Virus genome (UHGV): UHGV-1773631
Strand: one strand, 5' to 3'
Source of the DNA: a virus
DNA length: 18,342 nt
Shown: one piece after another, positions 3,232 through 18,342 of the stretch
How positions within the stretch are numbered: position 1 is the stretch's first letter
Layout of the letters: the number at the start of each line of letters is the position of its first letter
The notes under the pieces: generated by a model
Databases searched by the model: none
The model's input: only the letters and a program-made list of their open reading frames with translations
Told to the model about the DNA's origin: nothing
Translations under genes and position numbers: made by a program

Positions 3232-3264
3232 TTCCTTTTTTAATATTATAACATATATTTAAAT

Positions 3265-3296
3265 AAAAGTCAAGAGGAATTATCCTCTTGACTTTT
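3265..3296 (-). terminator. putative intrinsic terminator hairpin downstream of the Sak4-like gene
   Basis: Perfect inverted repeat AAAGTCAAGAGGA / TCCTCTTGACTTT (3266-3278 with 3283-3295), 4-nt loop, flanked by A/T runs on both sides (could act bidirectionally). Confidence 0.4.
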
Positions 3297-3312
3297 GTCA
3301 TTATTGTTATAA

Positions 3313-4284: not shown

Positions 4285-4324
4285 AAAACAATCTCCTTTT
4301 TAAATAAAATAATTTTAAAGAAAA

Positions 4325-4357
4325 ATATGAATGAGCTTTTTTAAAGCTCATTCATAT
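4325..4357 (-). terminator. putative intrinsic terminator downstream of the SSB-like gene
   Basis: Inverted repeat TATGAATGAGCTTT / AAAGCTCATTCATA (4326-4339 with 4343-4356); on the minus strand it is followed by TTTTCTTTAAAATTATTTTATTT. Confidence 0.5.
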
Positions 4358-4367
4358 AAAATTTTAA

Positions 4368-5324
4368 TTAAAAATCATAATCATTCTTACTAGAATTAAC
4401 CGTAACCCCAGTTCCGCCACCAATAGCGTTATTATTTGCTTTATTCTGATAATCGAGCTGATTCTTCTTAATAGTTGCAAGAGCAATCTCTCGTGCTGCA
4501 ACATAATCCTGAAGCTCAGAAGCAAGAATAGTATCTTCACTATCCCACTCATAAGGAGTCTGCTGCGCCCAATTAACCACATAATCCTTATAAGACTGAG
4601 GAGTTTCTCTCACAATTGCTTCGCCAAAAGCAGACTCTTCCTCGATCTTCTTTACCACAGTCTGAGAAATAATCTTACCCTGAATACGAGTAAAAACTGG
4701 ATTCTTGGGACTTGCTTCCAGTCCTTCAAAATAATCCATCGCCGCAGGATTTACAGCAGTAAACTCAACAGGAAGCAGCGCCTTACGGAAATCAAAAACT
4801 GCACCCTTAATAACAACACGCTCAGGCTTACCTCTCTCATCATCTGCCTCATAACGCACACAATTATTAATCACAATATCTTCATTGAAAGTTGCACTCT
4901 TAGATTCATCAATTCCCTCTTCGGGGCAAACCTCAAGATGAATAAAACCACCTTCAAGGCGTCGATTACTTACCAGCTTTTCCATATCATTCTTATCATA
5001 AAATTCATTCAAAGCAATAGCAGTATCAATTCTTACATACGCCGCATTATCCTTGCCATTATCCATGACATTACCCAGATCATTATTCAAAATTCGCTCA
5101 AGAATATTATAAGTATCATTAGTACCACGAGCAGTAACCGCGGTTACATATCTAAAATGAACAGTAACAACATTCAGACACTTATTATCTGTTGCAATAT
5201 TAACATCACCACGAATATACTCAGTACCAGGATTCTTAGAAGCACTGCCAGAAACCTTCTTTTCAAGCTTGTGACTATGAACAAAACCATTCAAATGTAC
5301 TGCATTAATAAACTTCTTACTCAT
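4368..5324 (-). CDS. putative single-stranded DNA-binding protein (SSB-like)
   Basis: 318 aa; SSB-like N-terminus (MSKKFINAVHLNGFV), Gly/Asn-rich linker and acidic C-terminal tail ending ...NDYDF, reminiscent of the SSB DIPF tail; sits next to the Sak4-like gene. Good RBS AAAGGAGAAAATAATG. Confidence 0.5.
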   Translation of the reverse strand: MSKKFINAVHLNGFVHSHKLEKKVSGSASKNPGTEYIRGDVNIATDNKCLNVVTVHFRYVTAVTARGTNDTYNILERILNNDLGNVMDNGKDNAAYVRIDTAIALNEFYDKNDMEKLVSNRRLEGGFIHLEVCPEEGIDESKSATFNEDIVINNCVRYEADDERGKPERVVIKGAVFDFRKALLPVEFTAVNPAAMDYFEGLEASPKNPVFTRIQGKIISQTVVKKIEEESAFGEAIVRETPQSYKDYVVNWAQQTPYEWDSEDTILASELQDYVAAREIALATIKKNQLDYQNKANNNAIGGGTGVTVNSSKNDYDF

Positions 5325-5400
5325 TATTTTCTCCTTTTGATTTAATTATTTTTTTATTGCCACTTCTGAAAAGAGGCTTTTCTTTTTATTTTCTATAAAT

Positions 5401-5429
5401 ATTGTATAATATTTTTTTTAATTTTTCAA
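5401..5429 (-). promoter_or_regulatory. putative sigma70-like promoter for the SSB/Sak4 unit
   Basis: On the minus strand: TTGAAA (5429-5424), 17-nt spacer, TACAAT (5406-5401); the -35 lies in the last codons of the ThyX-like gene. Confidence 0.4.
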
Positions 5430-6077
5430 TTTACCGCAAGAATGCTTCTCGGTACATTTGCCGAAATATTGACATTTAGGAACAAATAAGTGATCTACCA
5501 AATATTTCCATTCTTCTGAGTAAATAGCAAGTGCTTTTTTTATATCCTGCATAACATTTTGATATTCCCAATAAGCACGTTTACACATTCTTTGATGGGA
5601 CATATCAACTAAATTCCGCAAATTAGTTCTTACTACTACTTTTGTTTCCATACCAAGAGGAAGCAAAAGACTAGCATCTTCAATCGGCATCCCCATATCA
5701 ACTAATACTTTATAATTCTGAGCAATCGACTGCATACTTTCTTCATATTTTTGTTTCATTTCTTTAGAAGTAAAAGAAGGAGAAACAAAAGAAAAAGAAT
5801 CATAGTTGATATAGCGAGTTGATGCCTGTAGTCGTGTGGGGCCACCTGAAATATGAGTATAAAATTCTCTCAAAGTTTTTGCGCTATATCCTTCAAGGAT
5901 CATATAAACTTGTGGAAATTCCATAACTCTTCCATGCCCAGATTCAATACATTCTTTAGCTCTTTTGATATTATTATCTTTATTTGTGATTTTTGCGTTC
6001 CAACATACTCCCGCTTCAACGCCGATAAGATGAAGAGGATTCTTAGTAGTTGCGGATTGGATAATAACTTTGCCCAA
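5418..6077 (-). CDS. thyX: ThyX-like protein (flavin-dependent thymidylate synthase family, divergent)
   Basis: 219 aa; by-eye alignment to canonical ThyX: SGHGRVMEF vs SGHFSVLEH, YTHISGGPTRLQASTRY vs RHRxxxxxxxSQRY, NLVDMSHQRMCKRAYWEYQ vs the ThyX C-terminal helix. The RHR motif reads THI here and the C-terminus carries a Cys cluster (CQYFGKCTEKHSCGK). Confidence 0.65.
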   Translation of the reverse strand: MGKVIIQSATTKNPLHLIGVEAGVCWNAKITNKDNNIKRAKECIESGHGRVMEFPQVYMILEGYSAKTLREFYTHISGGPTRLQASTRYINYDSFSFVSPSFTSKEMKQKYEESMQSIAQNYKVLVDMGMPIEDASLLLPLGMETKVVVRTNLRNLVDMSHQRMCKRAYWEYQNVMQDIKKALAIYSEEWKYLVDHLFVPKCQYFGKCTEKHSCGKLKN

Positions 6078-6102
6078 TTTTATTACACCTCTTTAAGAGA
6101 AA

Positions 6103-6128
6103 TAAAAGGAGGACAAAAGTCCTCCTTT
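6103..6128 (-). terminator. putative intrinsic terminator hairpin
   Basis: Perfect 11-bp inverted repeat AAAAGGAGGAC / GTCCTCCTTTT with loop AAAA; on the minus strand followed by ATTTCTCTT. Lies between the 88-aa ORF and the ThyX-like gene. Confidence 0.45.
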
Positions 6129-6139
6129 TACATTAATTA

Positions 6140-6406
6140 TCAATCATCAATATCGTCAGGGGTAAAGTTCATACCTTCCTCTGTCAACTGAAGCAGTTTA
6201 ATAGCCTTATGAGTACCATCAGGTAGCTCAACCTCAGCGGAAACACGAATACCATAACCCTTACGCTGAATAGCGGAAGTAAAAATACCATCGACCTGAC
6301 GCTTCTCCAAACCCAGTGCGCCAGCCACATCAGCACTCGTCATATCAGTACCAGCGTTATTCTTCAAATACTCAAAAACCTTCTTAGAATTGTCGGACAT
6401 TGCCAT
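6140..6406 (-). CDS. hypothetical small protein, possible helix-turn-helix DNA-binding protein
   Basis: 88 aa; segment MTSADVAGALGLEKRQVDG resembles an HTH/winged-helix recognition region; acidic C-terminus; has its own strong promoter upstream. Confidence 0.4.
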   Translation of the reverse strand: MAMSDNSKKVFEYLKNNAGTDMTSADVAGALGLEKRQVDGIFTSAIQRKGYGIRVSAEVELPDGTHKAIKLLQLTEEGMNFTPDDIDD

Positions 6407-6502
6407 AATTAATTATCTCCTTTTATTTAAATATTTTTTTAATTTATATAATAATCTATGAGTATTATTTCTTTCATAGTTATTAACTTAATTTATGTAT
6501 AT

Positions 6503-6531
6503 ATTATATCAAAAAAATTTTAATTTTTCAA
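6503..6531 (-). promoter_or_regulatory. putative promoter with extended -10
   Basis: Minus strand: TTGAAA (6531-6526), 17-nt spacer, TGATATAAT (6511-6503). Drives the 88-aa ORF. Confidence 0.5.
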
Positions 6532-6729
6532 ATTCTTTTGAATAATTTCATCAATTTCTGCCATAACTTCAAAGCCTTGACCGTGCGGCAACCGCATAAT
6601 CATTTCTGTTAATTGCATAATACGCTTTTCAGCCTTAGCAATTTGATCTTGACTACTGTCTCCATCATTATGGATTTTTTCTAATGCAGTCATTTCAGAT
6701 GCAATTTTTTTAATTTGTTTTTTTGTCAT
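6520..6729 (-). CDS. hypothetical protein (69 aa, predicted helical/coiled-coil)
   Basis: ORF from the track with RBS-like AAGGTTAAGGAAAAAATAATG; no recognisable domain. Confidence 0.35.
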   Translation of the reverse strand: MTKKQIKKIASEMTALEKIHNDGDSSQDQIAKAEKRIMQLTEMIMRLPHGQGFEVMAEIDEIIQKNLKN

Positions 6730-6754
6730 TATTTTTTCCTTAACCTTTATTGTA

Positions 6755-6775
6755 TTTATATTATATTATATTTTT
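6755..6775 (-). promoter_or_regulatory. possible -10 region (tandem TATAAT) upstream of the 69-aa ORF
   Basis: Minus strand AAATATAATATAATATAAATAC about 30 nt upstream of the ATG; the -35 would fall inside the ligase coding end. Confidence 0.3.
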
Positions 6776-6784
6776 TTAAAAAAA

Positions 6785-7882
6785 TCAAGAAAAAATTTCT
6801 TCTATTAAACAATCTTTTGCTGGTTTATCTTCTCTGATTTTAATAAAATGAGGATGCCGCAGAGTGTGTTCATTTTTATCAATTTGCATACAATCAATAC
6901 TGACAACATGATTTAAAAATTCTTCTGGATTTTTAAGAATTAGATTTTTATCTTCATCTGTTAAGCCAGAAGAAACTGTTCCAATTTTAACTAATTTTCC
7001 TGTATTGTCATAGGCTCCTACCTCTAGTGCAGTTTTCCAACCAAAAAAATAAGGTTTAGTAATAGGAGTATAGTTGTCTTTATCTTTAATCCAGTTTATA
7101 TAATAACGTCCTTCTTGCAAACCATCAGGAGTTTCCCAATACTCCCATGTCTCTAAATCTTTTCCTGTATATTTTTTGGTAGCAGGACAAAAACCAATAC
7201 AGACTAAATCCACACTATCTGTACGTTTAATTTTAATAGTAGACCAAGCAGGACGTTTATCAGGATAATACGGCAAATTTTTCTTTTTTAAAACAAGTCC
7301 TTCTCCGCCCACTTTTAAAATAATATCAAGACGTTCTTGAATTTTTGTATCAAAAGCAAAAGCCAATTTAAGAAAATTAAACTGACCCAAATAATGTTTA
7401 TCCCAAATTGCTTTTAAAATTTTATACCTATCCCAAGCAGGACAATTAACTAAATTACATCCATCATATTGAATAATATCATGGATATAATAATGAATAA
7501 GGTTATTCTTTTGTCTTTTGATTGCGGTAGCCGGCAAACACCCCATAATAGTTGTTACTTCTTTTGAAGTTTTTCCTGGATAAAAAATTTCTCCAATTAA
7601 AGTAGTATTAGGAGGAAGACAACTATCTAAAGCCTTCATAATATGAGGGACATTTTCACCCTTTTCAGAATAATATCCAGTTGTTTTAGAAATATTTCTA
7701 CTAAAAAGATAGGAATAATGTTCTGTTTTTTCATACTGATACCAATAACCATCAATTTTTTCTTCAGCAAAATACTCTTTAGAATTTAAAATTTCTGGAA
7801 GTTTATATGCTTCCATATCAGAAGGAATTTTCCAGATTTTCATTGGCGGAATCATTTTAGCTTCTGGATACAATAATATCAC
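6785..7882 (-). CDS. ATP-dependent DNA ligase
   Basis: 365 aa; motif I KIDGYW (KxDG with the adenylated lysine), motif IV-like EGLVLK, motif V-like DLVCIGF, C-terminal motif VI-like LRHPHFIKIREDKPAKDC. Start overlaps the topoisomerase A gene by 4 nt. Confidence 0.75.
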   Translation of the reverse strand: MILLYPEAKMIPPMKIWKIPSDMEAYKLPEILNSKEYFAEEKIDGYWYQYEKTEHYSYLFSRNISKTTGYYSEKGENVPHIMKALDSCLPPNTTLIGEIFYPGKTSKEVTTIMGCLPATAIKRQKNNLIHYYIHDIIQYDGCNLVNCPAWDRYKILKAIWDKHYLGQFNFLKLAFAFDTKIQERLDIILKVGGEGLVLKKKNLPYYPDKRPAWSTIKIKRTDSVDLVCIGFCPATKKYTGKDLETWEYWETPDGLQEGRYYINWIKDKDNYTPITKPYFFGWKTALEVGAYDNTGKLVKIGTVSSGLTDEDKNLILKNPEEFLNHVVSIDCMQIDKNEHTLRHPHFIKIREDKPAKDCLIEEIFS

Positions 7883-10254
7883 TCCTCAATTTTAGATACC
7901 GAATTTATCTTATTATTATTCTTAATAATTTTTACCCCTTGTGCGACTTTACTTCCTAATGTCAATTCTTTTGCTGAAATTTTAATAGTAGATTTATCTC
8001 CCACAATCAATAAATTATTACTATTATTAATTAAACAACAGCCCGCAATGATTCCTCGATAGCCATAAGTGCCTCTTCCACCTCTTTTTTGCAATACAAA
8101 TTCTTTTAATAAAACTTGTTTGCCATTGCCATCTTCACTAATAAAAGCTAGATTATTTTTATTATTTGTAACTGGTAAACAGGTAAATACACTATCTCCT
8201 TCGCGCAAATTAATTCCTTTTACTCCTTGCGCAATCCGAGAAGAAATTGGCATATCTTTTGAATCAAAATGTAAAACAGTGCCATTCTTGGTAATTAATA
8301 ACATTGTCTCTTCTTCAATAAAAGTTACAGCTCTAAGTGCATCATTTTCTTTTAAAGAGATTGCCACAACACCTGTATTTCTTTTAGTATTATTAAATTC
8401 CTCTAAAGCAACCTTTTTAATAATACCATTCTTAGTTACAAAAAAAACATACTTTGCATTTGTTCCTTGATGTAAAGAAGCAAAAGCCATAGGAAATTCA
8501 TTTTTATCAAACTTAATTAAAGTATTTAAATTACTTCCTTTGGAAGAATTAGTCCCTTCTGGGATATTGTTCACCAGCAAACGATACATTTTCCCCTTAG
8601 AAGAAAAAACCATTAAAGTATCAATAGTATTAGTATCACAAATATAAGAAATAATATCATCATTATTTTTAATACCTACACCATTGCGCTTTTGTGTTTT
8701 ATAATTTTTGCTAGGAATGCGTTTAATATTACCAGATTTAGTAATAGATACAACACAATTTTCAGGGACAATATCAGGGACTATTGTTTCAATATTATTA
8801 TCTTCTAAGTTTAATAGTTTAGTTCTTCTCTTATCTCCATATTTATCTTTTAATTCAGTAATAATATTAATTAAAGTATTATCGCGAATTTCTTTATTGG
8901 TTAAAATACCAATACAATATTCAATAAACTTCTTTTTATCTTCCAATTCTTGAATTAATTCATTTTTGTTAATTTTGCTTAATTTGCCGAGTTTCATGTC
9001 TAAAACTGCATTTGCCTGAATTTCATCAATAGAAAGAAAAGCCATCAAACCTTCTTTTGCCATTTGATTATTTTCAGATTGCTTAATAATTTTAATTACT
9101 TCATCAATTTTATCTACCGCGGCGATAAGACCTTCCAAAATATGAACTCTAGCTTCTGCTTTCTCTTTGTCAAAAGTAGTAGAATTAATTAACATGTTTT
9201 CTTGATGTAAAACATAATTCTTAATTAAATCTAACATAGAACAAAGTTTAGGAGTACCATTAACAATAAAGTTCATATTATAAGAAAGGGTAGTCTGCAA
9301 ATCAGTTAATTTAAATAATCTATTTAAAGCAATTTGTGAATTTACGTTTTTCTTAACGTAAAAGATTAACTTGTTTTGTCCAACATTGGATTCATCGTCA
9401 AAATCCTCAATTACTTCTGCCAAAACATCTACATTTTTTTCAATCTGTTCTTTAATTTTATTTCGATAGGTTCTATAAGGAATAGTAGTAAAGATAATTT
9501 TATTATCTTTAATCTCATAATCTCCTTGAATCTTTAAAGAAACAGAAGAATGACCAGTATTAAAAGCAGTATAAATATCTTTGATATTAATAATAGTACC
9601 ACCTAATGGAAAATCTGGCCCAGGTAAATATTTAAGCAGATCGTTAGTATTGGAAATTTTTTTCTGAATAAACGCGATTGCAGTTTCACATACTTCTGTC
9701 AAATTGTGTGGGCTACTATTATGGCTCATAGACACACCAATAGCCTGTCTACCATTGCAAATTGCGTTAGGAAAAAGTGAAGGAAGAATAACTGGTTCCA
9801 TAAATTCACCATTATACGTCTCTTTTGTTGGGACAATATTCTTTTTAAAATCCTTCATCATCAAATCTGCATAAATACTAGGTTTAGCTTCTGTATATCT
9901 AGCAGAAGCCACCATATCATTATTCTCTTGCGTACCCAATGAACCCTGTCCCGCAATTAGAGGATACCGCATAAGATAATCCTGAGACATTTTACATAAA
10001 ACTCCATAGCAACTAGCATCACCATGAAAATAGCTAGTTGCTAATGTACTTCCCACGATAGCGTTACACTTTTTTGTTTTACTTTTGTTATTCATTTTAA
10101 GATAATCTTCCATAGTCCAAAGAATTTTTCTTTGCGCGGAAAGAAGACCATCTTCAATTGAAGGAATAGCTCTATCTGTCAAAACTTCTGAACTATAAGT
10201 TAAAAAGTTTTCTTTGGCTTCATCAAGAATATCAACTTCTGTAATTAAACTCAT
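7879..10254 (-). CDS. type II DNA topoisomerase, A subunit (GyrA/ParC-like)
   Basis: 791 aa; N-terminus AIPSIEDGLLSAQRKILW matches the GyrA winged-helix start; GDASCYGVLCKMSQDYLMRYPLIAGQGSLG and ARYTEAK match the catalytic-tyrosine region (RYTE); C-terminal region has a GyrA-box-like QKRGGRG. Confidence 0.85.
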   Translation of the reverse strand: MSLITEVDILDEAKENFLTYSSEVLTDRAIPSIEDGLLSAQRKILWTMEDYLKMNNKSKTKKCNAIVGSTLATSYFHGDASCYGVLCKMSQDYLMRYPLIAGQGSLGTQENNDMVASARYTEAKPSIYADLMMKDFKKNIVPTKETYNGEFMEPVILPSLFPNAICNGRQAIGVSMSHNSSPHNLTEVCETAIAFIQKKISNTNDLLKYLPGPDFPLGGTIINIKDIYTAFNTGHSSVSLKIQGDYEIKDNKIIFTTIPYRTYRNKIKEQIEKNVDVLAEVIEDFDDESNVGQNKLIFYVKKNVNSQIALNRLFKLTDLQTTLSYNMNFIVNGTPKLCSMLDLIKNYVLHQENMLINSTTFDKEKAEARVHILEGLIAAVDKIDEVIKIIKQSENNQMAKEGLMAFLSIDEIQANAVLDMKLGKLSKINKNELIQELEDKKKFIEYCIGILTNKEIRDNTLINIITELKDKYGDKRRTKLLNLEDNNIETIVPDIVPENCVVSITKSGNIKRIPSKNYKTQKRNGVGIKNNDDIISYICDTNTIDTLMVFSSKGKMYRLLVNNIPEGTNSSKGSNLNTLIKFDKNEFPMAFASLHQGTNAKYVFFVTKNGIIKKVALEEFNNTKRNTGVVAISLKENDALRAVTFIEEETMLLITKNGTVLHFDSKDMPISSRIAQGVKGINLREGDSVFTCLPVTNNKNNLAFISEDGNGKQVLLKEFVLQKRGGRGTYGYRGIIAGCCLINNSNNLLIVGDKSTIKISAKELTLGSKVAQGVKIIKNNNKINSVSKIEE

Positions 10255-10266
10255 TCTTTTCCTCCT

Positions 10267-12147
10267 TTAATCAAAAGTAAAACCAAGCTCAGTAGCGTTT
10301 TCATAAATATATTGTTTGCGGGGTTCTACTTTAACTCCCATTAAAATTTCAAGTAATTCATCTGCTTTTTCTGCATCACTAATAGTAATTCTTTTATAGC
10401 GTTCTTGCTCAAAGCAGACTTTCTGAAGATCACGTGCATTTAACTCGCCCAAACCCTTCGCTCTTACTAGCTCATAAGTGCCTTGATGCTGAGTTTTCCA
10501 CTCTTCAAGTTCTTCATCAGTATAAGCATAGTATTCATTATTCTTCTGACGAATAATGTACAAAGGAGTAACTGCTCTATAAAGCTTTCCTGCTTCGACT
10601 AAAGGCCGCATATAAGTAAAAAAGAATGTAGTTAAAAGTAACTCAATACTAGCTCCATCAGAATCTGCATCCGAAGTAATTACGATTTTATCAAATTGCA
10701 TTTTATCTATATCAAAAGTTTTATCAAAACCTCCACCAATTACTTTAATAATATCGGAGATTTCTTGATTAGCAAGAATCTTTTCAACAGATTGTTTTCT
10801 AGGGCTAATAGTTTTGCCTTTTAACATATAAATACAATCTGTTTTGGGATTCCGTGCTTCAACGGCAGAAGATCCTGCGCTTAGACCCTCGACTAACAGT
10901 AAATTACGCTGGCTTGGATGTTTATTTGTGCAATCAATAAATTTATTACTTAAAGCAACTTTAGCTTTAAGACCAGTTTCTTTTTTGCCCTTATCTCTAA
11001 CAGCTTCTCTAGCTTTTCGAGCTGCTTCTCTAGCTTTTCGAGCATTAATCGCCTTATCCGCGATTTTCTTTATTTCTTTTTCATTTGCTTCAAACCAATA
11101 CTGTAATTCTTGTGCAATAATTCCTGCGAAAGGGTGCATATCAATTTTAACAATTCTACTTTTGGTCTGAGCGTCATAAGCTATACCAGGAGCGGTAATA
11201 TTAAACACTAAATATAATCCTTCTTGGCAATCATCACCGGATAAATTACTATCCTTTTCTTTCAGCCAACCTTTATCTCTAAAAAACTTATTCATTTCTC
11301 TTGTTAGAATAGTTTTAATTTGAGTAATGTGCGGGCCAGTGTCAGTAAGTCCTGTATTAACATAAGGAACAATAGTAGAAAAATATTTATCAGTATAAGT
11401 TAATACTAAATTTAATTCATTCTTATTATCTTTAAAATCAATTTTAAGTCTATTTTTAATAATTTCGCTATTTTTGTCTACAGTAGAATCAACCAAATCA
11501 GTTAATCCATTCTTAGAGAAAAAAGTTTTTTCATTTAAAGTAATAGTTAAACCTGGACATAAACAAACTAAAACTTCAAAAAGATTATTAATAATTTTTA
11601 AATCTACTTCTGGGTGAGTAAAAAATTCTTCACTCGCTTGCCAAGTAACAACAGTACCAGATTCTTTATCATTTTTTACTTTACCAGTTTTGCGGTTTTT
11701 GAAAATTCCTTCTTCAAAAGAAACTTCTTCAAAGTTTCCTTTTTGATAACTAAGTACCTTTGTCCAATGACTTAAAAATACAACTAACTTACTGCCGATT
11801 CCGTTTAGACCTAACGCGGTACCTTCATAAACACCATCTTCAGTATATTTACCAGAGGTGTTAAGCACACTAAAAGCAGCTTCAAGAATTGTTTTTCCAT
11901 CTTCTCTAGTGGAATTAATTAAAAAACCTTGCCCATTATCTTTAACTGTAATTACATTATTATCTGAAATAGTTACATTAATTTCAGTGCAATGACCTGC
12001 TTTAAACTCATCAACTGCATTAGAAACAATCTCAATTAATAGCTGAGTTGAATATTCAGTAGAACCAACATATACTCCAGGTCTAAGTCTTGTAAATTCT
12101 AACGGAGTAAGACTTTGAATTGAATCTTTATTATATAAATTATTCAC
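10267..12147 (-). CDS. type II DNA topoisomerase, B subunit (GyrB/ParE-like ATPase plus TOPRIM)
   Basis: 626 aa; LEFTRLRPGVYVGST, EIVSNAVDE and DNGQG (GHKL ATPase N-box/G1), TOPRIM-like EGLSAGSSAVEAR and ITSDADSDG. Contains a duplicated AREAARKAREAVR segment. Confidence 0.85.
   Translation of the reverse strand: MNNLYNKDSIQSLTPLEFTRLRPGVYVGSTEYSTQLLIEIVSNAVDEFKAGHCTEINVTISDNNVITVKDNGQGFLINSTREDGKTILEAAFSVLNTSGKYTEDGVYEGTALGLNGIGSKLVVFLSHWTKVLSYQKGNFEEVSFEEGIFKNRKTGKVKNDKESGTVVTWQASEEFFTHPEVDLKIINNLFEVLVCLCPGLTITLNEKTFFSKNGLTDLVDSTVDKNSEIIKNRLKIDFKDNKNELNLVLTYTDKYFSTIVPYVNTGLTDTGPHITQIKTILTREMNKFFRDKGWLKEKDSNLSGDDCQEGLYLVFNITAPGIAYDAQTKSRIVKIDMHPFAGIIAQELQYWFEANEKEIKKIADKAINARKAREAARKAREAVRDKGKKETGLKAKVALSNKFIDCTNKHPSQRNLLLVEGLSAGSSAVEARNPKTDCIYMLKGKTISPRKQSVEKILANQEISDIIKVIGGGFDKTFDIDKMQFDKIVITSDADSDGASIELLLTTFFFTYMRPLVEAGKLYRAVTPLYIIRQKNNEYYAYTDEELEEWKTQHQGTYELVRAKGLGELNARDLQKVCFEQERYKRITISDAEKADELLEILMGVKVEPRKQYIYENATELGFTFD
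10965..11006. repeat. tandem direct duplication (2 x about 21 bp) inside the topoisomerase B gene
   Basis: GCTTCTCTAGCTTTTCGAGC occurs at 10965-10984 and again at 10986-11005; in frame, it encodes the duplicated AREAARKAREA peptide. Confidence 0.6.
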
Positions 12148-12634
12148 CCAATACCTCCTTAACAGTCACTCTACCAGTAGCTAAATCATCAGCAAGTTCA
12201 TTGCCTTCAATACCAGCATGACCTTTAATTTTTCTTAAATCAATCTTTCTATTCCATTTATTATATATTATATCATAAAATTTTATTAAATCCAAATTTT
12301 CAGGAGTCGATTTATCTGCTTTCCGCCAATTATTATTTTTCCACCTGTACATCCAATCATTGAAAGTATTTACGCAATATAAAGAATCTGTATAAACAAT
12401 AGGATAAGTAAAAGAATCCGCTGAAACTCCATAGTTATACAAAGCCCAAAGAATAGCTTTCATTTCTTCTCTGTTATTTGTAGTTCCAATAGTTTGATGA
12501 GCAAAAGCATCTACTAAATGTAAATTTTTGGGGTCTTTAAGATACTTGTAAACAACTACTCCATAACCTCCAGAAGCATCTTTACTACCATTTTTTAAAG
12601 TTGAGCCATCAGTGTAAATAATAGTACCTATGAT
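12140..12634 (-). CDS. rnhA: ribonuclease H (RNase HI-like); start codon non-canonical or gene disrupted
   Basis: The track ORF 12140-12463 starts at an internal Met (MKAILWAL...GHAGIEGNELADDLA). The same frame is open upstream to a TAA at 12635-12637 and encodes the essential N-terminal motif (I)GTIIYTDGS...TNNREE. The only in-frame candidate starts near the RBS GGGAG (12641-12645) are ATC (12632-12634) and ATA (12629-12631). Confidence 0.65.
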   Translation of the reverse strand: MIGTIIYTDGSTLKNGSKDASGGYGVVVYKYLKDPKNLHLVDAFAHQTIGTTNNREEMKAILWALYNYGVSADSFTYPIVYTDSLYCVNTFNDWMYRWKNNNWRKADKSTPENLDLIKFYDIIYNKWNRKIDLRKIKGHAGIEGNELADDLATGRVTVKEVLGE

Positions 12635-12713
12635 TTAATTCTCCCTTCTTTGATTTTCTTAAATAAAAGTAGTATAATATTATTAATAAATCAATCTTTT
12701 ATTCTTTAATAAT

Positions 12714-12742
12714 ATTATATCATTTTTTTAAAAATAAAACAA
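12714..12742 (-). promoter_or_regulatory. putative promoter with extended -10 for the RNase H / topoisomerase / ligase unit
   Basis: Minus strand: TTGTTT (12742-12737), 17-nt spacer, TGATATAAT (12722-12714), immediately downstream of the strong terminator hairpin. Confidence 0.45.
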
Positions 12743-12747
12743 ATAAA

Positions 12748-12782
12748 GGGTTATAAACTCACCTTTGGTGAGTTTATAACCC
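12748..12782 (-). terminator. intrinsic terminator after the lysis genes
   Basis: Perfect 16-bp inverted repeat GGGTTATAAACTCACC / GGTGAGTTTATAACCC (12748-12763 with 12767-12782), 3-nt loop, followed on the minus strand by TTTATTTGTTTTATTTTT. Confidence 0.7.
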
Positions 12783-12791
12783 ATATAATCT

Positions 12792-13133
12792 TCAAATCGG
12801 TCCAAAAACGTCCGGTTCATCGGAAGAAGTGGGCGTTTGTGGCGTCAGATTATTCATCACAGTTTCATATTTTATGCCATTTTTAGTATTCTCACGAGTG
12901 GCTTTATTGTAATAAAAAGCTTGACTAACTGCATAAGCAGCCCAAGGTAAACTGGCTTCCGCAGCCAACCAAGGCAAAGAGCCAGTAAATCCTTCGTGAA
13001 TGCAATAAAATGCTAGAATAATATGAGCAAGAGAATGAACCCATATTAAAGCAGATTCTTGAGCTAAAAGGACTTTTGAAAATTCTTTTTTCTTTTTTCT
13101 TTTGTTTCTATTTTTTTTAACGAAGCTTATCAT
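12792..13133 (-). CDS. putative holin-like small membrane protein
   Basis: 113 aa; two hydrophobic helix-length segments (ALIWVHSLAHIILAFYCI and SLPWLAAEASLPWAAYAVSQAFYY), highly basic N-terminus, overlaps the 3' end of the endolysin gene by 17 nt. Assignment rests on position and topology only. Confidence 0.4.
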   Translation of the reverse strand: MISFVKKNRNKRKKKKEFSKVLLAQESALIWVHSLAHIILAFYCIHEGFTGSLPWLAAEASLPWAAYAVSQAFYYNKATRENTKNGIKYETVMNNLTPQTPTSSDEPDVFGPI

Positions 13134-13905
13134 ACAATCTCTTCATTATAGTGACGCCTTCTAGTCTGGTTAAAAACTTATTAGGCATTAATTTGCCAGT
13201 TTCGTCACCTTTAATTAGTCCCATAGAAACTGCCCAATTTAATTCATCTTTGCCCCAATCAGCATTTTGCTTAGCTAATTGAACTAAATAATTATTCATC
13301 ATTTCATTAAATTTTTCTTGAGTCATATCTTCATCCTCCTCTTGTTTAATTGTAGGTTTATTATTATTTGTTTTAGGTTTTTCAATTATAAAGTAATATT
13401 TTACCTGTTGTTTGAAAAGACTATAATTACCTCTAGTGCGTGCGGTTTTTGTGCTGTTAGGGTCATTAATATAAATAGTGTTTCCTTGAATATTCCACAC
13501 TAAAATGAAATGACCACTACTTGTCCATAATCCTTTGCCCATACAAGCTATAACTAAATTACCTTTATCAATTTCAGCTTTTGCTAAATTATGATATTTA
13601 CTAGAACTATTACCATAAATATTTGCACCATTCAACATATAGGCTGTTAAACCGTATCGTGCAGCAGCAGGCTTAAAATATCCATAATAAGTTCCTTGGT
13701 GAGGGGCTTTATAACCATGTGTTAAAGCCCAAGCACATTCAGTTTTTGGAGTAACTTTTTTATCTGCCCATGTAGCTAAAACCATAGACATTGCGGTGGG
13801 GCCACACCCAGAAGCGCCGATTGTAGTTGATTCACCTTTTGCTGAATAGCTAATATTTTTCCATCTTGCGTCTGTTTGTAGATAAGATACAGGCTGTGTA
13901 TTCAT
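13117..13905 (-). CDS. endolysin: papain-like cysteine peptidase (C39-like) with C-terminal SLH-like cell-wall-binding domain
   Basis: N-terminal half has a Cys...His pair in a C39-like context (GASGCGPTAMSMVL ... SGHFILVW); C-terminal WAVSMGLIKGDETGKLMPNKFLTRLEGVTIMKRL matches the SLH consensus. Start placed at the second ATG (13905; RBS AAAGGAGA about 7 nt upstream); the track ORF begins 6 nt earlier at 13911. Confidence 0.65.
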   Translation of the reverse strand: MNTQPVSYLQTDARWKNISYSAKGESTTIGASGCGPTAMSMVLATWADKKVTPKTECAWALTHGYKAPHQGTYYGYFKPAAARYGLTAYMLNGANIYGNSSSKYHNLAKAEIDKGNLVIACMGKGLWTSSGHFILVWNIQGNTIYINDPNSTKTARTRGNYSLFKQQVKYYFIIEKPKTNNNKPTIKQEEDEDMTQEKFNEMMNNYLVQLAKQNADWGKDELNWAVSMGLIKGDETGKLMPNKFLTRLEGVTIMKRLYDKLR

Positions 13906-13933
13906 ATACATTCTCCTTTCTTTTGTTTTAAAA

Positions 13934-13962
13934 AAAGAGCTAGGATTTTATCCTAGCTCTTT
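13934..13962 (-). terminator. putative intrinsic terminator between the PhoH-like gene and the endolysin
   Basis: 13-bp perfect inverted repeat AAAGAGCTAGGAT / ATCCTAGCTCTTT (13934-13946 with 13950-13962), followed on the minus strand by TTTTTT; T-rich on the plus side too. Confidence 0.6.
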
Positions 13963-13970
13963 GATTATTA

Positions 13971-15242
13971 TTAAATTAATTCTGCAAGTTCTGTTATTTT
14001 AGATCTATGGATATTATTTAAAGTTACTTCTCCATAAATATCAGAACCTCTAAAAATTTTAGACATTCTTCTCATACCATTGTTATTACCAGAATAAGCT
14101 AATGAGTCAACTTGCGTTTTAGCATCACCATCAATAATACAAATACAATCTTCACCAATACGTTGAAGAGCTAATTTAATTAAAGTTCTATCTAAATTTT
14201 GTGCTTCTGTTATATAAATACCTGCGTTCATTCCGCTAGTATCGTAACCTCTAATATCGCTAAAAGGCAATAAAACTAATTTATCTTCTTCCATCATACG
14301 AAGAACACCTTCTTTACCGCCTAATTTGGCGGAAAGCATATTACCAATTTGCGAGTCAAGTAATTTATCGTCTTTTGTACCTGGGTAAAACCCTAATTTA
14401 GCGGAATTAATAGTTGCCACTGTATTACAAAAGATTATAATTTTATCTATTCTATTTTTTTCTAACATATACATTAAAAAAGCTAGAGAAATGTAAGATT
14501 TTCCTACTCCTGCTGGGCCTTGTAGCAAAGTAATTTTATTATTAGCTAAACTATCAAAAGCGCATTTTTGATATATATCTCCTTGATATGGTTGTACTTT
14601 TCCAAACCAGGTAGAATCAAAAGTAGGAAATTTTAAATAACGATAAGTTTCTCCTGTCCAAACCCGCACATCTATAAGTTCATCAAAATTATCAGGATTT
14701 TTTAAAAGTAGATATTCTCCTTTTTTAAGATTAAAATGATTATAGTTAGGATTTTCATAAAATTCAGAAATTAATTCTTCACTAGCAGTAATTTCTGCAA
14801 TTCCACTATAAGTATCTAAATCTTCTTCAATAGAAGAAACATTTTCTTTGGGAAACAAACATAAAGCAATATGTTTTAAACTTAAATCATTAGTTATAAA
14901 TTCTAAACATTTATTTGTTTCAAATTCATTCCAAGCATCAGACAAAATTCTAGCATCATCATTAATATCAAAATTCATTTTATCTAAAATGTATTCATAA
15001 TTTGTTTGATGAATTTTAACAGAATAATTATTTGGATATTTTTCAAATAAATGAAGCAAAAGTCTTGCGGAATATTTTATATCAGAATCTTTATTTGCCG
15101 CAGTTTTAATTCTTTCTAACTCTTTTAAAGTAATAGAAGAAATGATAAATTTTTCATTATCTTCAAAAGCTGATTCTCCGGCTAATAAAAGACTACAAGT
15201 ATCGTAGAATTTAATAATAATTTCCACTCTCCTATTGTTCAA
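13971..15242 (-). CDS. PIN-domain / PhoH-like ATPase fusion (PhoH2-like)
   Basis: 423 aa; N-terminal PIN-like acidic motif (IIKFYDTCSLLLAG), Walker A LLQGPAGVGKSY, PhoH-type IIDGDAKTQVD and NNIHRSKITELAE. Confidence 0.8.
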   Translation of the reverse strand: MNNRRVEIIIKFYDTCSLLLAGESAFEDNEKFIISSITLKELERIKTAANKDSDIKYSARLLLHLFEKYPNNYSVKIHQTNYEYILDKMNFDINDDARILSDAWNEFETNKCLEFITNDLSLKHIALCLFPKENVSSIEEDLDTYSGIAEITASEELISEFYENPNYNHFNLKKGEYLLLKNPDNFDELIDVRVWTGETYRYLKFPTFDSTWFGKVQPYQGDIYQKCAFDSLANNKITLLQGPAGVGKSYISLAFLMYMLEKNRIDKIIIFCNTVATINSAKLGFYPGTKDDKLLDSQIGNMLSAKLGGKEGVLRMMEEDKLVLLPFSDIRGYDTSGMNAGIYITEAQNLDRTLIKLALQRIGEDCICIIDGDAKTQVDSLAYSGNNNGMRRMSKIFRGSDIYGEVTLNNIHRSKITELAELI

Positions 15243-15693
15243 ATAAGATAAAATAATAATTATTTATGGCCTTTCTTTGTCTTTTTAGAGAAGTAATTAC
15301 TTTACTTTGAGCTTTTAAATATGTATTTAATTCTTTTTCTTCTGTTTTAATATAACCCAAATATTTATTAATTTGCCGTTTTAACCTTACTATTTCTTTA
15401 ATGACAATGATATACTCACATTTTTTATTTTCTCTTAAAATATCGTTATAAAATCTTTTTACAGCGTTATATTCGATATTAGTTTTTTCTTTAATATCTT
15501 TTAAAGCATTAATAATTGCTCTTTTGTGAGCTATTGTTTGACCTACTTTGGTTGAGAAAAAGTCCATATCATCAGAATGACAAGTAGCAATCCCAGTATA
15601 GTATTTTCGTTCATAATAAATTATTGCCTCAATTGAATTATTTGTGTAATTAAATTCTACGGGTAAAAGATTAATTGTTTTTCTTAGACTCAT
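15232..15693 (-). CDS. hypothetical protein (153 aa)
   Basis: ORF from the track with RBS AGGAGAA and a promoter upstream; overlaps the PhoH2-like start by 11 nt (probably translationally coupled). No motif recognised. Confidence 0.4.
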   Translation of the reverse strand: MSLRKTINLLPVEFNYTNNSIEAIIYYERKYYTGIATCHSDDMDFFSTKVGQTIAHKRAIINALKDIKEKTNIEYNAVKRFYNDILRENKKCEYIIVIKEIVRLKRQINKYLGYIKTEEKELNTYLKAQSKVITSLKRQRKAINNYYFILFEQ

Positions 15694-15723
15694 TAAAATT
15701 CTCCTATCTTATTTTATATTATA

Positions 15724-15752
15724 ATTATATCATAAATTCTGAGAAAAATAAA
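15724..15752 (-). promoter_or_regulatory. putative promoter with extended -10 for the ORF 15232 / PhoH2 unit
   Basis: Minus strand: TTTATT (15752-15747), 17-nt spacer, TGATATAAT (15732-15724), about 30 nt upstream of the ATG at 15693. Confidence 0.4.
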
Positions 15753-15780
15753 ATTCTTGATATTTGCGTAAAAAATTGCT

Positions 15781-15857
15781 AGAGGCGCGAAAATTCGGCG
15801 ACACGGGCCGCCACGAATATGCACGAAGACCCTAGAGTAAAAGCACTCTAGGGTCTT
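15781..15857. other. GC-rich intergenic island ending in a strong stem-loop (terminator-like or structured RNA)
   Basis: About 55 bp of roughly 60% GC (GAGGCGCGAAAATTCGGCGACACGGGCCGCCACG...) in an otherwise AT-rich region, then a perfect 13-bp inverted repeat AAGACCCTAGAGT / ACTCTAGGGTCTT (15826-15838 with 15845-15857, loop AAAAGC). The T-rich tract follows the hairpin on the plus strand, opposite to the genes. Confidence 0.4.
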
Positions 15858-15861
15858 TAAT

Positions 15862-16407
15862 TTATTGTTTAATTTTGTTTTTAATATCCTTAATAATTGA
15901 ATCAATAGAAACAGGAAAATTATTATGAGCATCCAATTCTACATGATAAATAAGACCTTTATCCCAATCCGCAAAAGCGTCCTGACTATGAGAGTGTCCG
16001 CACATACTAATCATTCTTGCTTTAAGAGGTTTCTCATTATCAAAATTACTACAAAGTGTAGGATAATGGCTTAAATAAAAATGATATTTACCATATCTTA
16101 GAAATTGACCTTCAGTTACTTTAATAATATTGTTACAATTATTATATAAATTTACACGAACTTCACTATCATGGTTTCCTCTAATTACATAAATTTGTCC
16201 TTTTAACTGTTTAATTTTTTCAATTCCTGCTTCATTATCATTTAGCATTAAATCGCCAAGCACATAAATTTTATCATTAGGACGAATAATTTTATTCCAA
16301 TTTTCAATAATTGCGTTATCATGTTCTTGAATATTCTTAAACCCTCTTGGTTCATAAAGAAAGGGCTTATTATGGCCTAGATGAAGATCACTGGTAAACC
16401 AAACCAT
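15862..16407 (-). CDS. calcineurin-like metallophosphoesterase
   Basis: 181 aa; metal-binding motifs DLHLGH, VLGD, RGNHD and GHSH characteristic of binuclear metallophosphoesterases; begins 2 nt after the stop of the upstream kinase gene. Confidence 0.75.
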   Translation of the reverse strand: MVWFTSDLHLGHNKPFLYEPRGFKNIQEHDNAIIENWNKIIRPNDKIYVLGDLMLNDNEAGIEKIKQLKGQIYVIRGNHDSEVRVNLYNNCNNIIKVTEGQFLRYGKYHFYLSHYPTLCSNFDNEKPLKARMISMCGHSHSQDAFADWDKGLIYHVELDAHNNFPVSIDSIIKDIKNKIKQ

Positions 16408-16409
16408 TA

Positions 16410-16922
16410 TTACACCTCCTCAGTATAATGTAAAATAGTATTCACATTATGAAAACCCCAATCAAGATATTTATTCATCTCATCTTTAGAAGGAATAGAA
16501 GATTTAAAATAAAAATTTTTTATTGCTTCTTCTGGAACTTTAGCGAAACCTTCTCTTTCAGAATTTCTTCTTAAAGCAACATCTAAAAGAATAGGAAAAT
16601 AATCAAAAGTAAGATTAATATTATTCTTATCTTTCAGATTAAAAAAATTGTTTAAAAGTTTAGCTCTTGAAGAAACATCAATATGAGTTGCATCTATATA
16701 AATATTTTCTACATTTTCTTTAATTGCAATTCTAATATTTGCAATCATTTCTTTATATACCTGTTTTTCTTTACTAAAATAATTTTTTCCAGGATTTTCG
16801 CCTATATAATTCTTGCGGATTTCATCTCTTGAAATAATTTTACCATTCTGTTGTTTTGCCCAAGTAGATTTGCCGGAAGCAGGAATACCACAAAGAATAT
16901 GCAAATTAATCATAAATACCAA
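16410..16922 (-). CDS. P-loop kinase, polynucleotide kinase (T4 Pnk)-like
   Basis: 170 aa; Walker A GIPASGKSTWA followed by SRDEIR, paralleling T4 Pnk kinase GCPGSGKSTWA ... NRDDYR. Confidence 0.6.
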   Translation of the reverse strand: MVFMINLHILCGIPASGKSTWAKQQNGKIISRDEIRKNYIGENPGKNYFSKEKQVYKEMIANIRIAIKENVENIYIDATHIDVSSRAKLLNNFFNLKDKNNINLTFDYFPILLDVALRRNSEREGFAKVPEEAIKNFYFKSSIPSKDEMNKYLDWGFHNVNTILHYTEEV

Positions 16923-17199
16923 ACTCCTTTACATAAGAAATACTATTTTGTGCTTCTTCTTTAAAAAGACCTTCTTCAAAATCTAGTTTAAAATTATATG
17001 CTTCTTCATCGTTTCTACATTCTACCATATTAACAGTTTCTTTACAATGAGGGCAATACATAACTTTCTTATGCCCAACTTCTCTAAAACGTCCTCTTAA
17101 TCGAGGAATTGACATTGACTTCTTTCCGCAATTCATACAATAAAAATCGTGCATTTCATATTTTCTAGGGTCTTTAGACATTTTTATCAAACTCCTCAA
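16906..17199 (-). CDS. hypothetical zinc-ribbon protein
   Basis: 97 aa; two CxxC pairs (CMNCGKK ... CPHCKE). Function unknown. Confidence 0.4.
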   Translation of the reverse strand: MRSLIKMSKDPRKYEMHDFYCMNCGKKSMSIPRLRGRFREVGHKKVMYCPHCKETVNMVECRNDEEAYNFKLDFEEGLFKEEAQNSISYVKEFGIYD

Positions 17200-17578
17200 T
17201 TTGTTTTTTTACAATTTCAAAATATTCTTTAAGTTCTTTTCTTTCTTTTTCTGTATTTATTTTTTTAATTTCTGTCTTTTTCCAAATTTTATATTTTAAC
17301 ATTTCTACATAATTTGTAAAAATAATACGTATATTATTGTCTGTTAAATATTTTCGTGTAGAGAAAGGCTTTGAAAAAACAACCGAATATTTTTGTAGTT
17401 CATAATTTTCTGGACTTAAATTATAGAAAGAAATAAATTCTTTTAATTTTAAAACTACATATTTATGTTTCCTTACAATTTTACAATCTAGTTTATATTC
17501 ATCATAATCATATATAAAACAACCTAAAATTATTACTCCAGTAAAAGGTAATGTTAATCCTAGTATTAATAGTACCAT
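17174..17578 (-). CDS. hypothetical membrane protein
   Basis: 134 aa; N-terminal hydrophobic segment MVLLILGLTLPFTGVIILGCFIY, then a Lys/Glu-rich soluble region. Confidence 0.4.
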   Translation of the reverse strand: MVLLILGLTLPFTGVIILGCFIYDYDEYKLDCKIVRKHKYVVLKLKEFISFYNLSPENYELQKYSVVFSKPFSTRKYLTDNNIRIIFTNYVEMLKYKIWKKTEIKKINTEKERKELKEYFEIVKKQIEEFDKNV

Positions 17579-17580
17579 AA

Positions 17581-18303
17581 TTATTCTCCTTGAGCAGAAA
17601 AGATATGTTCATCAAAAGTATCTAAATCAAAAAGGATAATTTGCTTACTCCAATGAGTACCTAAATCAAGATTAACCTTTTGATTATTATTATACCAACA
17701 AGCTCCACCTTCATATTTGGGAGGATTGCGAAATTCTCCTATATCTTCTATCATTAGAGGAATTGGGGTATGGCCATGAATAATTAATTCATTTGGATTA
17801 ATTAAACATCTAAATTTATAATGTAATCTATTCCAAAGAAAATCAAATTCATCACCAGAAATATTATTAGGAGAAAAACCTGCATGACTTAAATGAATTT
17901 TAATTCCATTTTTATTAGTGTATTGTTCATAAACTGGAAGTTTATTAATTAAATTTAAATACTCAATAACATTTTTTTCTTTAGACCAGTCTAGTAAAGT
18001 AGATAAACCTCCATTATTCATGTGACGATAAATATCATCTCCATATAGACATCTTTCATTTTTTAAAAATTCTCTTCCAGAATCTACTAACATTTGTTCA
18101 TGATTTCCTTTAAGAAGAGTAAATCTTTCATCTTTTAAAATTTCTTTAAGTATTTTCCAACCTTCTGTCCCTCTGTCAATTACATCACCCAGCACGAACA
18201 CTTTATCTTCTGCTTGAATGAAATTTTTAATCTGCTTAAACAAATTTGAATTACCATGAAGGTCAGTAAAACAATAAACTTTACCCTTATTCATAAACAT
18301 CAA
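17581..18303 (-). CDS. Ser/Thr protein phosphatase, PPP family (lambda phosphatase-like)
   Basis: 240 aa; canonical PPP motifs in order: DLHG (CFTDLHGN), GDVIDRG, GNHE. RBS AAAGGAA upstream. Confidence 0.8.
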   Translation of the reverse strand: MMFMNKGKVYCFTDLHGNSNLFKQIKNFIQAEDKVFVLGDVIDRGTEGWKILKEILKDERFTLLKGNHEQMLVDSGREFLKNERCLYGDDIYRHMNNGGLSTLLDWSKEKNVIEYLNLINKLPVYEQYTNKNGIKIHLSHAGFSPNNISGDEFDFLWNRLHYKFRCLINPNELIIHGHTPIPLMIEDIGEFRNPPKYEGGACWYNNNQKVNLDLGTHWSKQIILFDLDTFDEHIFSAQGE

Positions 18304-18342
18304 TTCCTTTCTTAATTTCTATATATATTATATAATAATTTT

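Follow-up and report, generated by a model that had tools for sequence, protein, structure and literature searches.

Phages counter the RNA-cutting defences of their hosts, anticodon nucleases for example, by means of end-healing enzymes, and such enzymes also serve as laboratory tools. In UHGV virus genome UHGV-1773631, analysed here as a stretch of 18,342 nucleotides (the window), two adjacent genes code for a kinase related to the polynucleotide kinase of phage T4 and for a binuclear metallophosphoesterase that we name MPE-A. We hold it to be probable, at about 60%, that the two proteins make up a co-expressed, two-polypeptide unit that heals nucleic-acid ends and feeds an RNA ligase of the Rnl5 type. 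The kinase would transfer a phosphate from a nucleoside triphosphate onto the 5'-OH ends of polynucleotides. MPE-A, a phosphoesterase of the Mn/Ni binuclear type, would remove the 2',3'-cyclic or 3'-phosphate to leave a 3'-OH, and a nick-sealing Rnl5-type ligase, encoded a few genes upstream in a close relative of this phage, would join the healed ends. The probable role of the process is the repair of RNAs that the phage needs, tRNA or other structured RNA, after they have been cut by host ribonuclease defences.

The kinase matches Pfam AAA_33 (E = 2e-12) and PHROG 505, 'polynucleotide kinase' (1.4e-17), while tblastn against 50,697 phage records retrieves mainly the kinase domains of PseT/Pnk proteins, at 25-32% identity. 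A profile made from the alignment of 24 diverse homologues was searched against all PDB sequences. It recovered PSTK (1e-14), T4 Pnk (1.1e-14), Capnocytophaga Pnkp1 (5e-14), the kinase domain of Clostridium thermocellum Pnkp (CthPnkp, 5e-13) and mammalian PNKP (7e-6). Adenylate-kinase-like, shikimate and gluconate kinases came only at E = 0.003-0.8, and nicotinamide riboside kinase is missing from the PDB matches of this profile. The AlphaFold2 model (predicted local distance difference test score, pLDDT, 93) leads to the same order, Foldseek ranking mammalian PNKP, CthPnk, PSTK, a Mucorales RNA kinase and Pnkp1 before PFKFB and the adenylate kinases. Invariant across the 24 homologues are the motifs GxxxxGKST, SRDxxR, DA(T) and N..R, which in this protein (numbered over 167 residues) read GIPASGKST with G9 and K15, SRDEIR at 28-33, IDATH at 73-77 and RRNSER at 115-120. 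In the HMMER alignment their columns fall on GCPGSGKST, NRDDYR (Asp35/Arg38), SDT and RNSKR of T4 Pnk, the last being the lid motif that includes Arg126 and that is matched by the invariant N and final R of RRNSER. We take these T4 residues to be the ones established by mutagenesis and crystallography as essential for 5'-kinase activity. Judged by profile and predicted fold, the protein is a member of the polynucleotide-kinase clade formed by T4 Pnk, CthPnk, Pnkp1, PSTK and mammalian PNKP, as a preliminary description of this DNA had proposed in calling it T4-Pnk-like (a best match to small-molecule kinases, which would have undone that proposal, is not what was found), and it is predicted to act on 5'-OH polynucleotide ends. 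It consists of a single AAA_33 domain, without the C-terminal DxDxT (HAD) 3'-phosphatase domain fused to it. Assignment to PSTK or KTI12, the best single-sequence matches in the PDB and NCBIfam, was discarded, the C-terminal tRNA-binding domain being absent and the score 49.5 bits against a cut-off of 290 bits. The family is large, with 760 clusters at 50% identity (E <= 1e-30, in a profile search of 1.84 billion cluster representatives), and entirely uncharacterised.

These matches bear on another view of the pair, in which adjacency would reflect nucleotide or nicotinamide adenine dinucleotide (NAD) metabolism, the kinase acting on a nucleoside or other small molecule (nicotinamide riboside, for example) and MPE-A on a nucleotide or a cyclic-nucleotide signal. 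Genes of the NAD-salvage type do occur in the neighbourhood: an isochorismatase and a phosphoribosyltransferase lie near the pair in two homologous loci (L015 and L165; L numbers designate loci throughout), and Prs-like, NAMPT and Macro genes near a pair-like block in vibriophages JSF10 and Gary. There, the AAA_33 protein has nicotinamide riboside kinase as its best match among solved structures, over the P-loop region only. The kinase family of the window, however, displays invariant SRDxxR and RNxxR motifs of the Pnk type, matches polynucleotide kinases at 1e-14 with small-molecule kinases orders of magnitude behind, and has an RNA ligase as its most consistent upstream neighbour. The invariant motifs being specific to Pnk, a metabolic role of the kinase family is unlikely, and as an account of the pair as a whole this view seems to us very improbable.

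MPE-A matches Pfam Metallophos_2 and Metallophos, and PHROG 547, 'phosphoesterase' (5e-42). Its residues D7, H9, D52, N78, H79, H114, H138 and H140 (signatures DxH, GD, GNH, H and GHxH), carried by SDLHLGH 6-12, LGDLM 50-54, GNHD 77-80, LSHYP 112-116 and CGHSH 136-140, are invariant in 30 homologues. With all metal-ligand motifs thus conserved, the earlier identification of a calcineurin-type phosphoesterase, not a HAD enzyme, is upheld. A profile search of the PDB finds aq_1665 (1XM7, 2.6e-11) as the only solved relative, the next match, GpdQ, standing at 0.009. The AlphaFold2 model (pLDDT 94.7) likewise brings 1XM7 first in Foldseek (3e-11, TM 0.72), followed by MJ0936, LpxH, GpdQ, PptH and Rv0805; lambda phosphatase ranks eleventh. 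By profile and fold, therefore, MPE-A is a genuine binuclear metallophosphoesterase of the aq_1665 subfamily, and not of the lambda-phosphatase branch to which the enzyme of bacterial Pnkp belongs. Membership of the PdeM, SbcD or YfcE families was also considered and rejected, all NCBIfam scores being far under their cut-offs.

Both open reading frames (ORFs) are real genes and not the product of chance, since each has hundreds of database homologues (E down to 1e-103 for the kinase and 1e-119 for MPE-A) and Pfam scores above curated cut-offs (48 bits for AAA_33, 37 bits for Metallophos_2). The kinase stop codon TAA occupies 16412-16410 and the MPE-A ATG 16407-16405, which leaves exactly 2 nt between them; everything that the preliminary description reported of the layout, from coordinates and gap to motifs, is found in the sequence. 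Translation of the kinase probably starts at the ATG at 16913 and not at the upstream TTG, because its closest homologues are 167 residues long and begin with MINLH; an AAGGAG precedes this ATG. The Shine-Dalgarno sequence of MPE-A lies within the final codons of the kinase gene, where the sequence reads ...ACTGAGGAGGTGTAATAATGG. This arrangement implies that the two genes would be co-transcribed, and their translation is probably coupled.

The association is conserved well beyond close relatives. Among homologue contexts in a large protein collection, the order kinase then MPE-A is kept at 88%, 77%, 57% and about 40% kinase identity. Linkage was measured in 80 loci from viral contigs (IMG/VR) that carry kinase relatives, scanned with purpose-built hidden Markov models (HMMs), and counts were made on the 30 loci where a stand-alone kinase strongly matches the family (E < 1e-35). 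MPE-A is found on the kinase strand in all 30; in 29 it is downstream by no more than 1.5 kb, and in 23 the distance is at most 150 nt, often with an overlap, although many of these loci come from related phages that share gene order and do not make 30 independent cases. In at least 19 of them (a lower bound, as several loci end there) an RNA ligase is encoded upstream, no more than 8 kb from the kinase, and a gene for a PIN-PhoH protein follows the pair in 24. By contrast, none of 26 loci in which the kinase is part of a longer protein (T4-like, or fused to an HD domain as in Bacillus phage PBC2) has an adjacent MPE-A. The pair also persists amid different neighbours: between DNA polymerase III alpha and RecD2 helicase genes in L011, after a sigma factor in L035, and in L107. 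The preliminary description would have given way had linkage not been conserved; the 30 loci, these differing flanks and natural fusions of the two proteins all speak for conserved linkage.

The fusions, P0293 and P0373, were found among the best 150 of the 760 family members. Each has 341 residues, with the kinase over residues 1 to about 150 and MPE-A over 162-338. Scores are about 1e-55 for every one of these domains, and the MPE-A portions share 36-38% identity with MPE-A of the window. The two proteins are only 43% identical over their full length, so that fusion of kinase and MPE-A is a conserved arrangement and no artefact of assembly. The separate proteins may associate in a physical complex. 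In species-representative genomes, the pair was seen only on contigs of metagenome-assembled genomes (MAGs), either short or of about 148-158 kb, that carry the same phage gene block, and no cellular version appeared among them; the true bacterial chromosomes that were scanned have lone, more distant AAA_33 kinases without MPE-A.

Where would the healed ends be sealed? The window stops 39 nt past the gene for a second phosphoesterase, MPE-B. A 120-kb human-gut contig (L096), 98% identical to the window and collinear with its positions 6244-18342, continues beyond this end. There follow, in order, a 72-residue ORF, a YqeY/GatB-like protein, an RNA ligase of 422 residues, a third metallophosphoesterase, a nucleotidyltransferase that weakly resembles RlaP ('RNA ligase-associated Pol-beta', PF10127, 4e-4, under the cut-off) and a protein with a cREC 'cyclic-phosphate processing receiver' domain (PF20274, 5e-19). 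The ligase gene, at L096 5899-7167, lies about 0.9 kb past the right edge of the window, and L096 positions 5899-7619 span it together with that of the YqeY/GatB-like protein. The window edge has apparently cut through an RNA-repair island. A profile built from 18 ligases of this type matches the Naegleria gruberi RNA ligase (5COT) at 1e-26 across the N-terminal OB and adenylyltransferase domains, and T4 Rnl2 at 1e-5; 5COT (NgrRnl) is the structural prototype of the Rnl5 family. K186 and G189 of the KxxG motif are invariant in the aligned relatives, and the ligase of L035 combines the PHA02142 OB domain with PF09414. In L035 and L107, the genes for ligase, kinase and MPE-A follow one another in a tight row of three, and MPE-B is absent from their vicinity.

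The preliminary description had looked for the sealing enzyme inside the window, proposing with some reserve the ligase encoded at 6785-7882. It was right about the nature of that protein, whose DNA-ligase-like motifs are those of a genuine ATP-dependent DNA ligase (Pfam DNA_ligase_A_M, 2.4e-18). As for partnership, the gene is 8 kb from the pair, on the far side of the gyrase genes, and is not specially linked to it; judging by family and gene order, the partner is likely to be the Rnl5-type ligase beyond the window. This is also where a purely DNA-directed function has to be weighed, namely that the pair heals DNA nicks bearing a 3'-phosphate and a 5'-OH end, on behalf of the DNA ligase or for the sealing of replication nicks. 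The window carries this ligase along with a replication module (gyrase, DnaB, RNase H), and the Pnkp enzymes of T4 and mammals work on DNA. Yet gyrase and other genes separate the DNA ligase from the pair, and the neighbours conserved close to the pair are the RNA ligase, YqeY/GatB-like protein, the weak RlaP-like match, cREC domain protein and PIN-PhoH. It is because of these neighbours that RNA is favoured over DNA as the substrate, and a function confined to DNA seems to us quite improbable.

Several points weigh against an end-healing unit made of kinase and MPE-A and dedicated to RNA. To begin with, its ligase lies outside the window itself, and the relatedness of many of the loci tempers the linkage counts. 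What Rnl5 ligases act on physiologically is unsettled, and their roles have been described as uncharted, while DraRnl, the Rnl5 enzyme of Deinococcus, has been linked to the repair of DNA after irradiation (PMC5397189); this also lends support to a DNA substrate, and for both reasons an RNA substrate is favoured here without being proven. The MPE-A superfamily is broad, its match set comprising 2001 phage records. Its best relative in a cultured phage is gp076 of Staphylococcus phage K (34% identity; L003, 5001-5528). Genes of the Prs-like and NAMPT kinds lie some 3 kb from gp076, but neither a kinase nor an RNA ligase is encoded within 5 kb of it, so that the wider family is not always linked to a kinase. 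We know of no enzyme with an established activity in the aq_1665 subfamily. Furthermore, the island holds two metallophosphoesterases beside MPE-A, and it is MPE-B, not MPE-A, that resembles lambda phosphatase and CthPnkp. MPE-A has GDLMLND in place of GDxxDRG, and its profile gives no match to the phosphatase of CthPnkp (4J6O) at E <= 0.1. The preliminary likening of the pair to bacterial Pnkp can thus be kept for the kinase and for the metallophosphoesterase superfamily, and has to be given up for the phosphoesterase subfamily.

The identity of the phosphoesterase that acts on the 3' end is the main uncertainty. MPE-B, which has the GDxxDRG and GNHE motifs, matches lambda phosphatase at 9e-20 and 4J6O at 7e-6 when its profile is run against the PDB. 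It aligns with positions 170-308 of PHROG 8238, a family of Pnkp-like kinase-phosphatase-ligase proteins, of which the kinase of the window matches the kinase segment. It comes first in the same tight gene block, and in L015, L039 and L098 it is the immediate neighbour of the kinase. Both lambda phosphatase and CthPnkp have demonstrated 2',3'-cyclic phosphodiesterase activity (PMC2190708), which supports such a role for MPE-B. MPE-B is therefore a candidate, rival or additional, for 3'-end healing. In the rival version the kinase would still be a polynucleotide kinase, with MPE-B healing the 3' end and MPE-A left to 2'-phosphate removal, nuclease trimming or cyclic-nucleotide hydrolysis, unless both enzymes share the steps. 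Against this stand the counts, with MPE-B found upstream, at up to 8 kb from the kinase, in 16 of the 30 loci whereas MPE-A is present in every one, the compact trios of L035 and L107, and the natural fusions, which join the kinase to MPE-A and not to MPE-B. Universal linkage, fusions and minimal trios thus favour MPE-A, and kinship with lambda phosphatase and CthPnkp favours MPE-B. On balance we regard healing by MPE-B in place of MPE-A as unlikely; the two could also divide the diesterase and monoesterase steps between them.

With MPE-A retained as the putative 3'-end enzyme, a broader proposal can be put forward. Phosphoesterases of the aq_1665 type might be dedicated healers of RNA 2',3'-cyclic and 3'-phosphate ends, obligate partners, as complex or fusion, of stand-alone Pnk-type kinases and feeding Rnl5 ligases, in a hitherto uncharacterised three-protein RNA-repair system widespread in large gut phages. 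We offer this generalization tentatively, its chances being in our estimate somewhat short of even.

Table 1. Features around the kinase and MPE-A genes, in window coordinates.
Feature	Position	Strand	Description
MPE-B, lambda-phosphatase/NinI-like	17581-18303	minus	GDVIDRG and GNHE motifs; PHROG 246 (5.5e-30); heads the same tight gene block
Protein with hydrophobic N-terminus	17174-17578	minus	134 residues; between the MPE-B and zinc-ribbon genes
Zinc-ribbon protein	16906-17199	minus	97 residues; PHROG 1257 (6.8e-11); 8-nt overlap of its stop with the kinase ATG
Kinase ORF	16410-16922	minus	170 residues from TTG at 16922; probable start ATG at 16913, giving 167 residues
Shine-Dalgarno sequence of MPE-A, GAGGAGG	16415-16421	minus	within the last kinase codons (GAG GAG GTG), 7 nt upstream of the MPE-A ATG
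MPE-A, binuclear metallophosphoesterase	15862-16407	minus	181 residues; name coined in this analysis
Hairpin	15825-15858		14-bp stem; directly after the MPE-A stop codon; strand unspecified
PIN-PhoH protein	13971-15242	minus	Pfam PhoH (3e-25) and PIN_4 (3e-5); often found downstream of the pair

Every gene in this region of the window lies on the minus strand (Table 1), and the block runs from MPE-B through the hydrophobic and zinc-ribbon proteins to the kinase and MPE-A, with gaps of 2 nt or overlaps. The protein with a hydrophobic N-terminus has no family match in Pfam or PHROGs and is conserved only in close relatives. The zinc-ribbon gene is also kept in close relatives only, its 8-nt overlap with the kinase gene recurring in L004, L006, L014 and L096. 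On the other side of the pair, the hairpin is probably where the transcription unit ends. Its T-rich tail, however, is on the plus strand only, which makes a role as a terminator on the coding strand uncertain. The next gene has a promoter-like site of its own (15745-15718) and its own ribosome-binding site. Within this intergenic region (15694-15861), the hairpin is followed by an unusually GC-rich stretch at about 15780-15820, in a genome of 30% GC, and then by the promoter-like site. No Rfam family reached its gathering score in the window, and the region after MPE-A gave only a small-RNA match at chance level. The PIN-PhoH gene is split into two or three ORFs in relatives L014, L015, L021, L022 and L024, possibly through introns, inteins or frameshifts.

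The phage itself codes for gyrase A and B, DnaB, ThyX, RNase H and the DNA ligase, and no tRNA gene is present in the window. A nucleotide search of positions 15000-18342 against the 50,697 phage records returned no match, so that a cultured close relative is lacking. A C39-like peptidase with an S-layer-homology (SLH) domain, encoded at 13117-13911 on the minus strand, hints at a host with an S-layer. This domain, together with the binning of look-alike contigs, about 148 kb long, among Oscillospiraceae and Eubacterium MAGs, suggests that the host belongs to gut Clostridia. The gyrB gene of the window (10267-12147) is uninterrupted, whereas at about 10450 L096 has an insert of 337 nt (L096 16009-16327) with a weak match to group I introns (25.9 bits, E = 2e-4, under the gathering score), and a GIY-YIG endonuclease ORF sits at the same gyrB site in L014 (10299-11180). 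The insert looks like a mobile intron, polymorphic among strains.

Comparative surveys have noted that in a few jumbo phages calcineurin-like domains may stand in for the phosphatase (PMC7824862); what is new is accordingly not the concept, only this specific, conserved implementation of it. In the literature searched, which does not extend to a 2016 survey of RNA repair that may list the combination, we found no paper characterising a stand-alone Pnk with an aq_1665-type phosphoesterase. So far, the 3'-phosphatase modules paired with Pnk-type kinases are of the HAD (T4, mammals), lambda-phosphatase-like (bacterial Pnkp), HD and 2H types. The present locus suggests a fifth type, a minimal metallophosphoesterase of the aq_1665 type, usually separate and occasionally fused. 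The system is widespread and conserved and has natural fusions, yet it is not conceptually surprising. Should the proposed mechanism be correct, an orphan family of structural genomics (the structure of aq_1665 has been known since 2004) would gain a function, Rnl5 ligases would gain a first clear physiological pathway, and a counter-defence island would have been flagged in abundant human-gut phages.

How does the pair compare with systems already described? It shares with T4 Pnkp (PseT) and Rnl1 a homologous kinase domain with P-loop, Asp-x-x-Arg and RNxxR, the phage setting, and an order in which the kinase comes first and the 3'-phosphoesterase second, with an RNA ligase nearby. The T4 enzyme, however, is a single polypeptide with a DxDxT (HAD) acylphosphatase, where the window has a separate binuclear metalloenzyme, and the T4 ligase is of the Rnl1 type while the one associated here is of the Rnl5 type. 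Bacterial Pnkp (that of C. thermocellum, or Capnocytophaga Pnkp1) also combines a Pnk-type kinase with a metallophosphoesterase. There, kinase, lambda-phosphatase-like module and ligase are fused and work with Hen1, whereas in the window the proteins are separate, MPE-A is of another subfamily and the ligase is a distinct Rnl5-type protein. The NCBIfam model bacter_Pnkp gives 20.8 bits against a cut-off of 750, and no Hen1 or other methyltransferase was seen among the scanned window ORFs of at least 60 residues (several small ORFs being outside the scan) or, in the 20-kb L096 locus, among its called genes. The pair hence stands outside the T4 Pnkp family, for want of a HAD domain, and outside that of bacterial Pnkp, by reason of its phosphoesterase subfamily, unfused proteins, ligase type and the absence of a visible Hen1.

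Other likenesses are partial. With aq_1665 of Aquifex aeolicus, its closest solved relative by profile and fold, MPE-A shares the DxHxxH, GD and GNHD motifs; identity is only about 22%, and aq_1665 is a structural-genomics protein without assigned function or partner. In kinase-HD fusions (gp158 of PBC2, bacterial HD-Pnk) the HAD phosphatase has likewise been replaced by another phosphohydrolase fold, but there an HD domain is fused to the kinase, while here it is a metallophosphoesterase, usually encoded by a separate gene. As a case in point, in Bacillus phage PBC2 (L001, NC_071040, 2722-4999) a gene annotated as '2'-5' RNA ligase' matches the Rnl5-like profile at 2e-94 and is followed by the kinase-HD 'polynucleotide kinase'. 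Cultured T5-like vibriophages (JSF10, Gary, Thalassa and others) display the same order of a NinI-like phosphatase, an RNA ligase, an AAA_33 'ATPase' and an MPE-A-like 'phosphoesterase'. This block, at 1920-4689 in JSF10 (L167, NC_042074) and 2695-5981 in Gary (L168), is followed by Prs-like, Macro and NAMPT genes and carries no annotation for RNA repair. Its P-loop protein, however, is distant (1e-6 with the kinase profile) and devoid of the arginine of Asp-x-x-Arg, and its ligase is of the T4 Rnl1 type (PF09511). We did not retain the block as a cultured example of the pair, the P-loop protein being too divergent to be called a polynucleotide kinase; it may be a distant analogue of the cassette, and these phages might lend themselves to use as a model for experiments. 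By analogy, the pair of the window would work on the principle known from T4 Pnkp with Rnl1 and from bacterial Pnkp, while being built from different parts.

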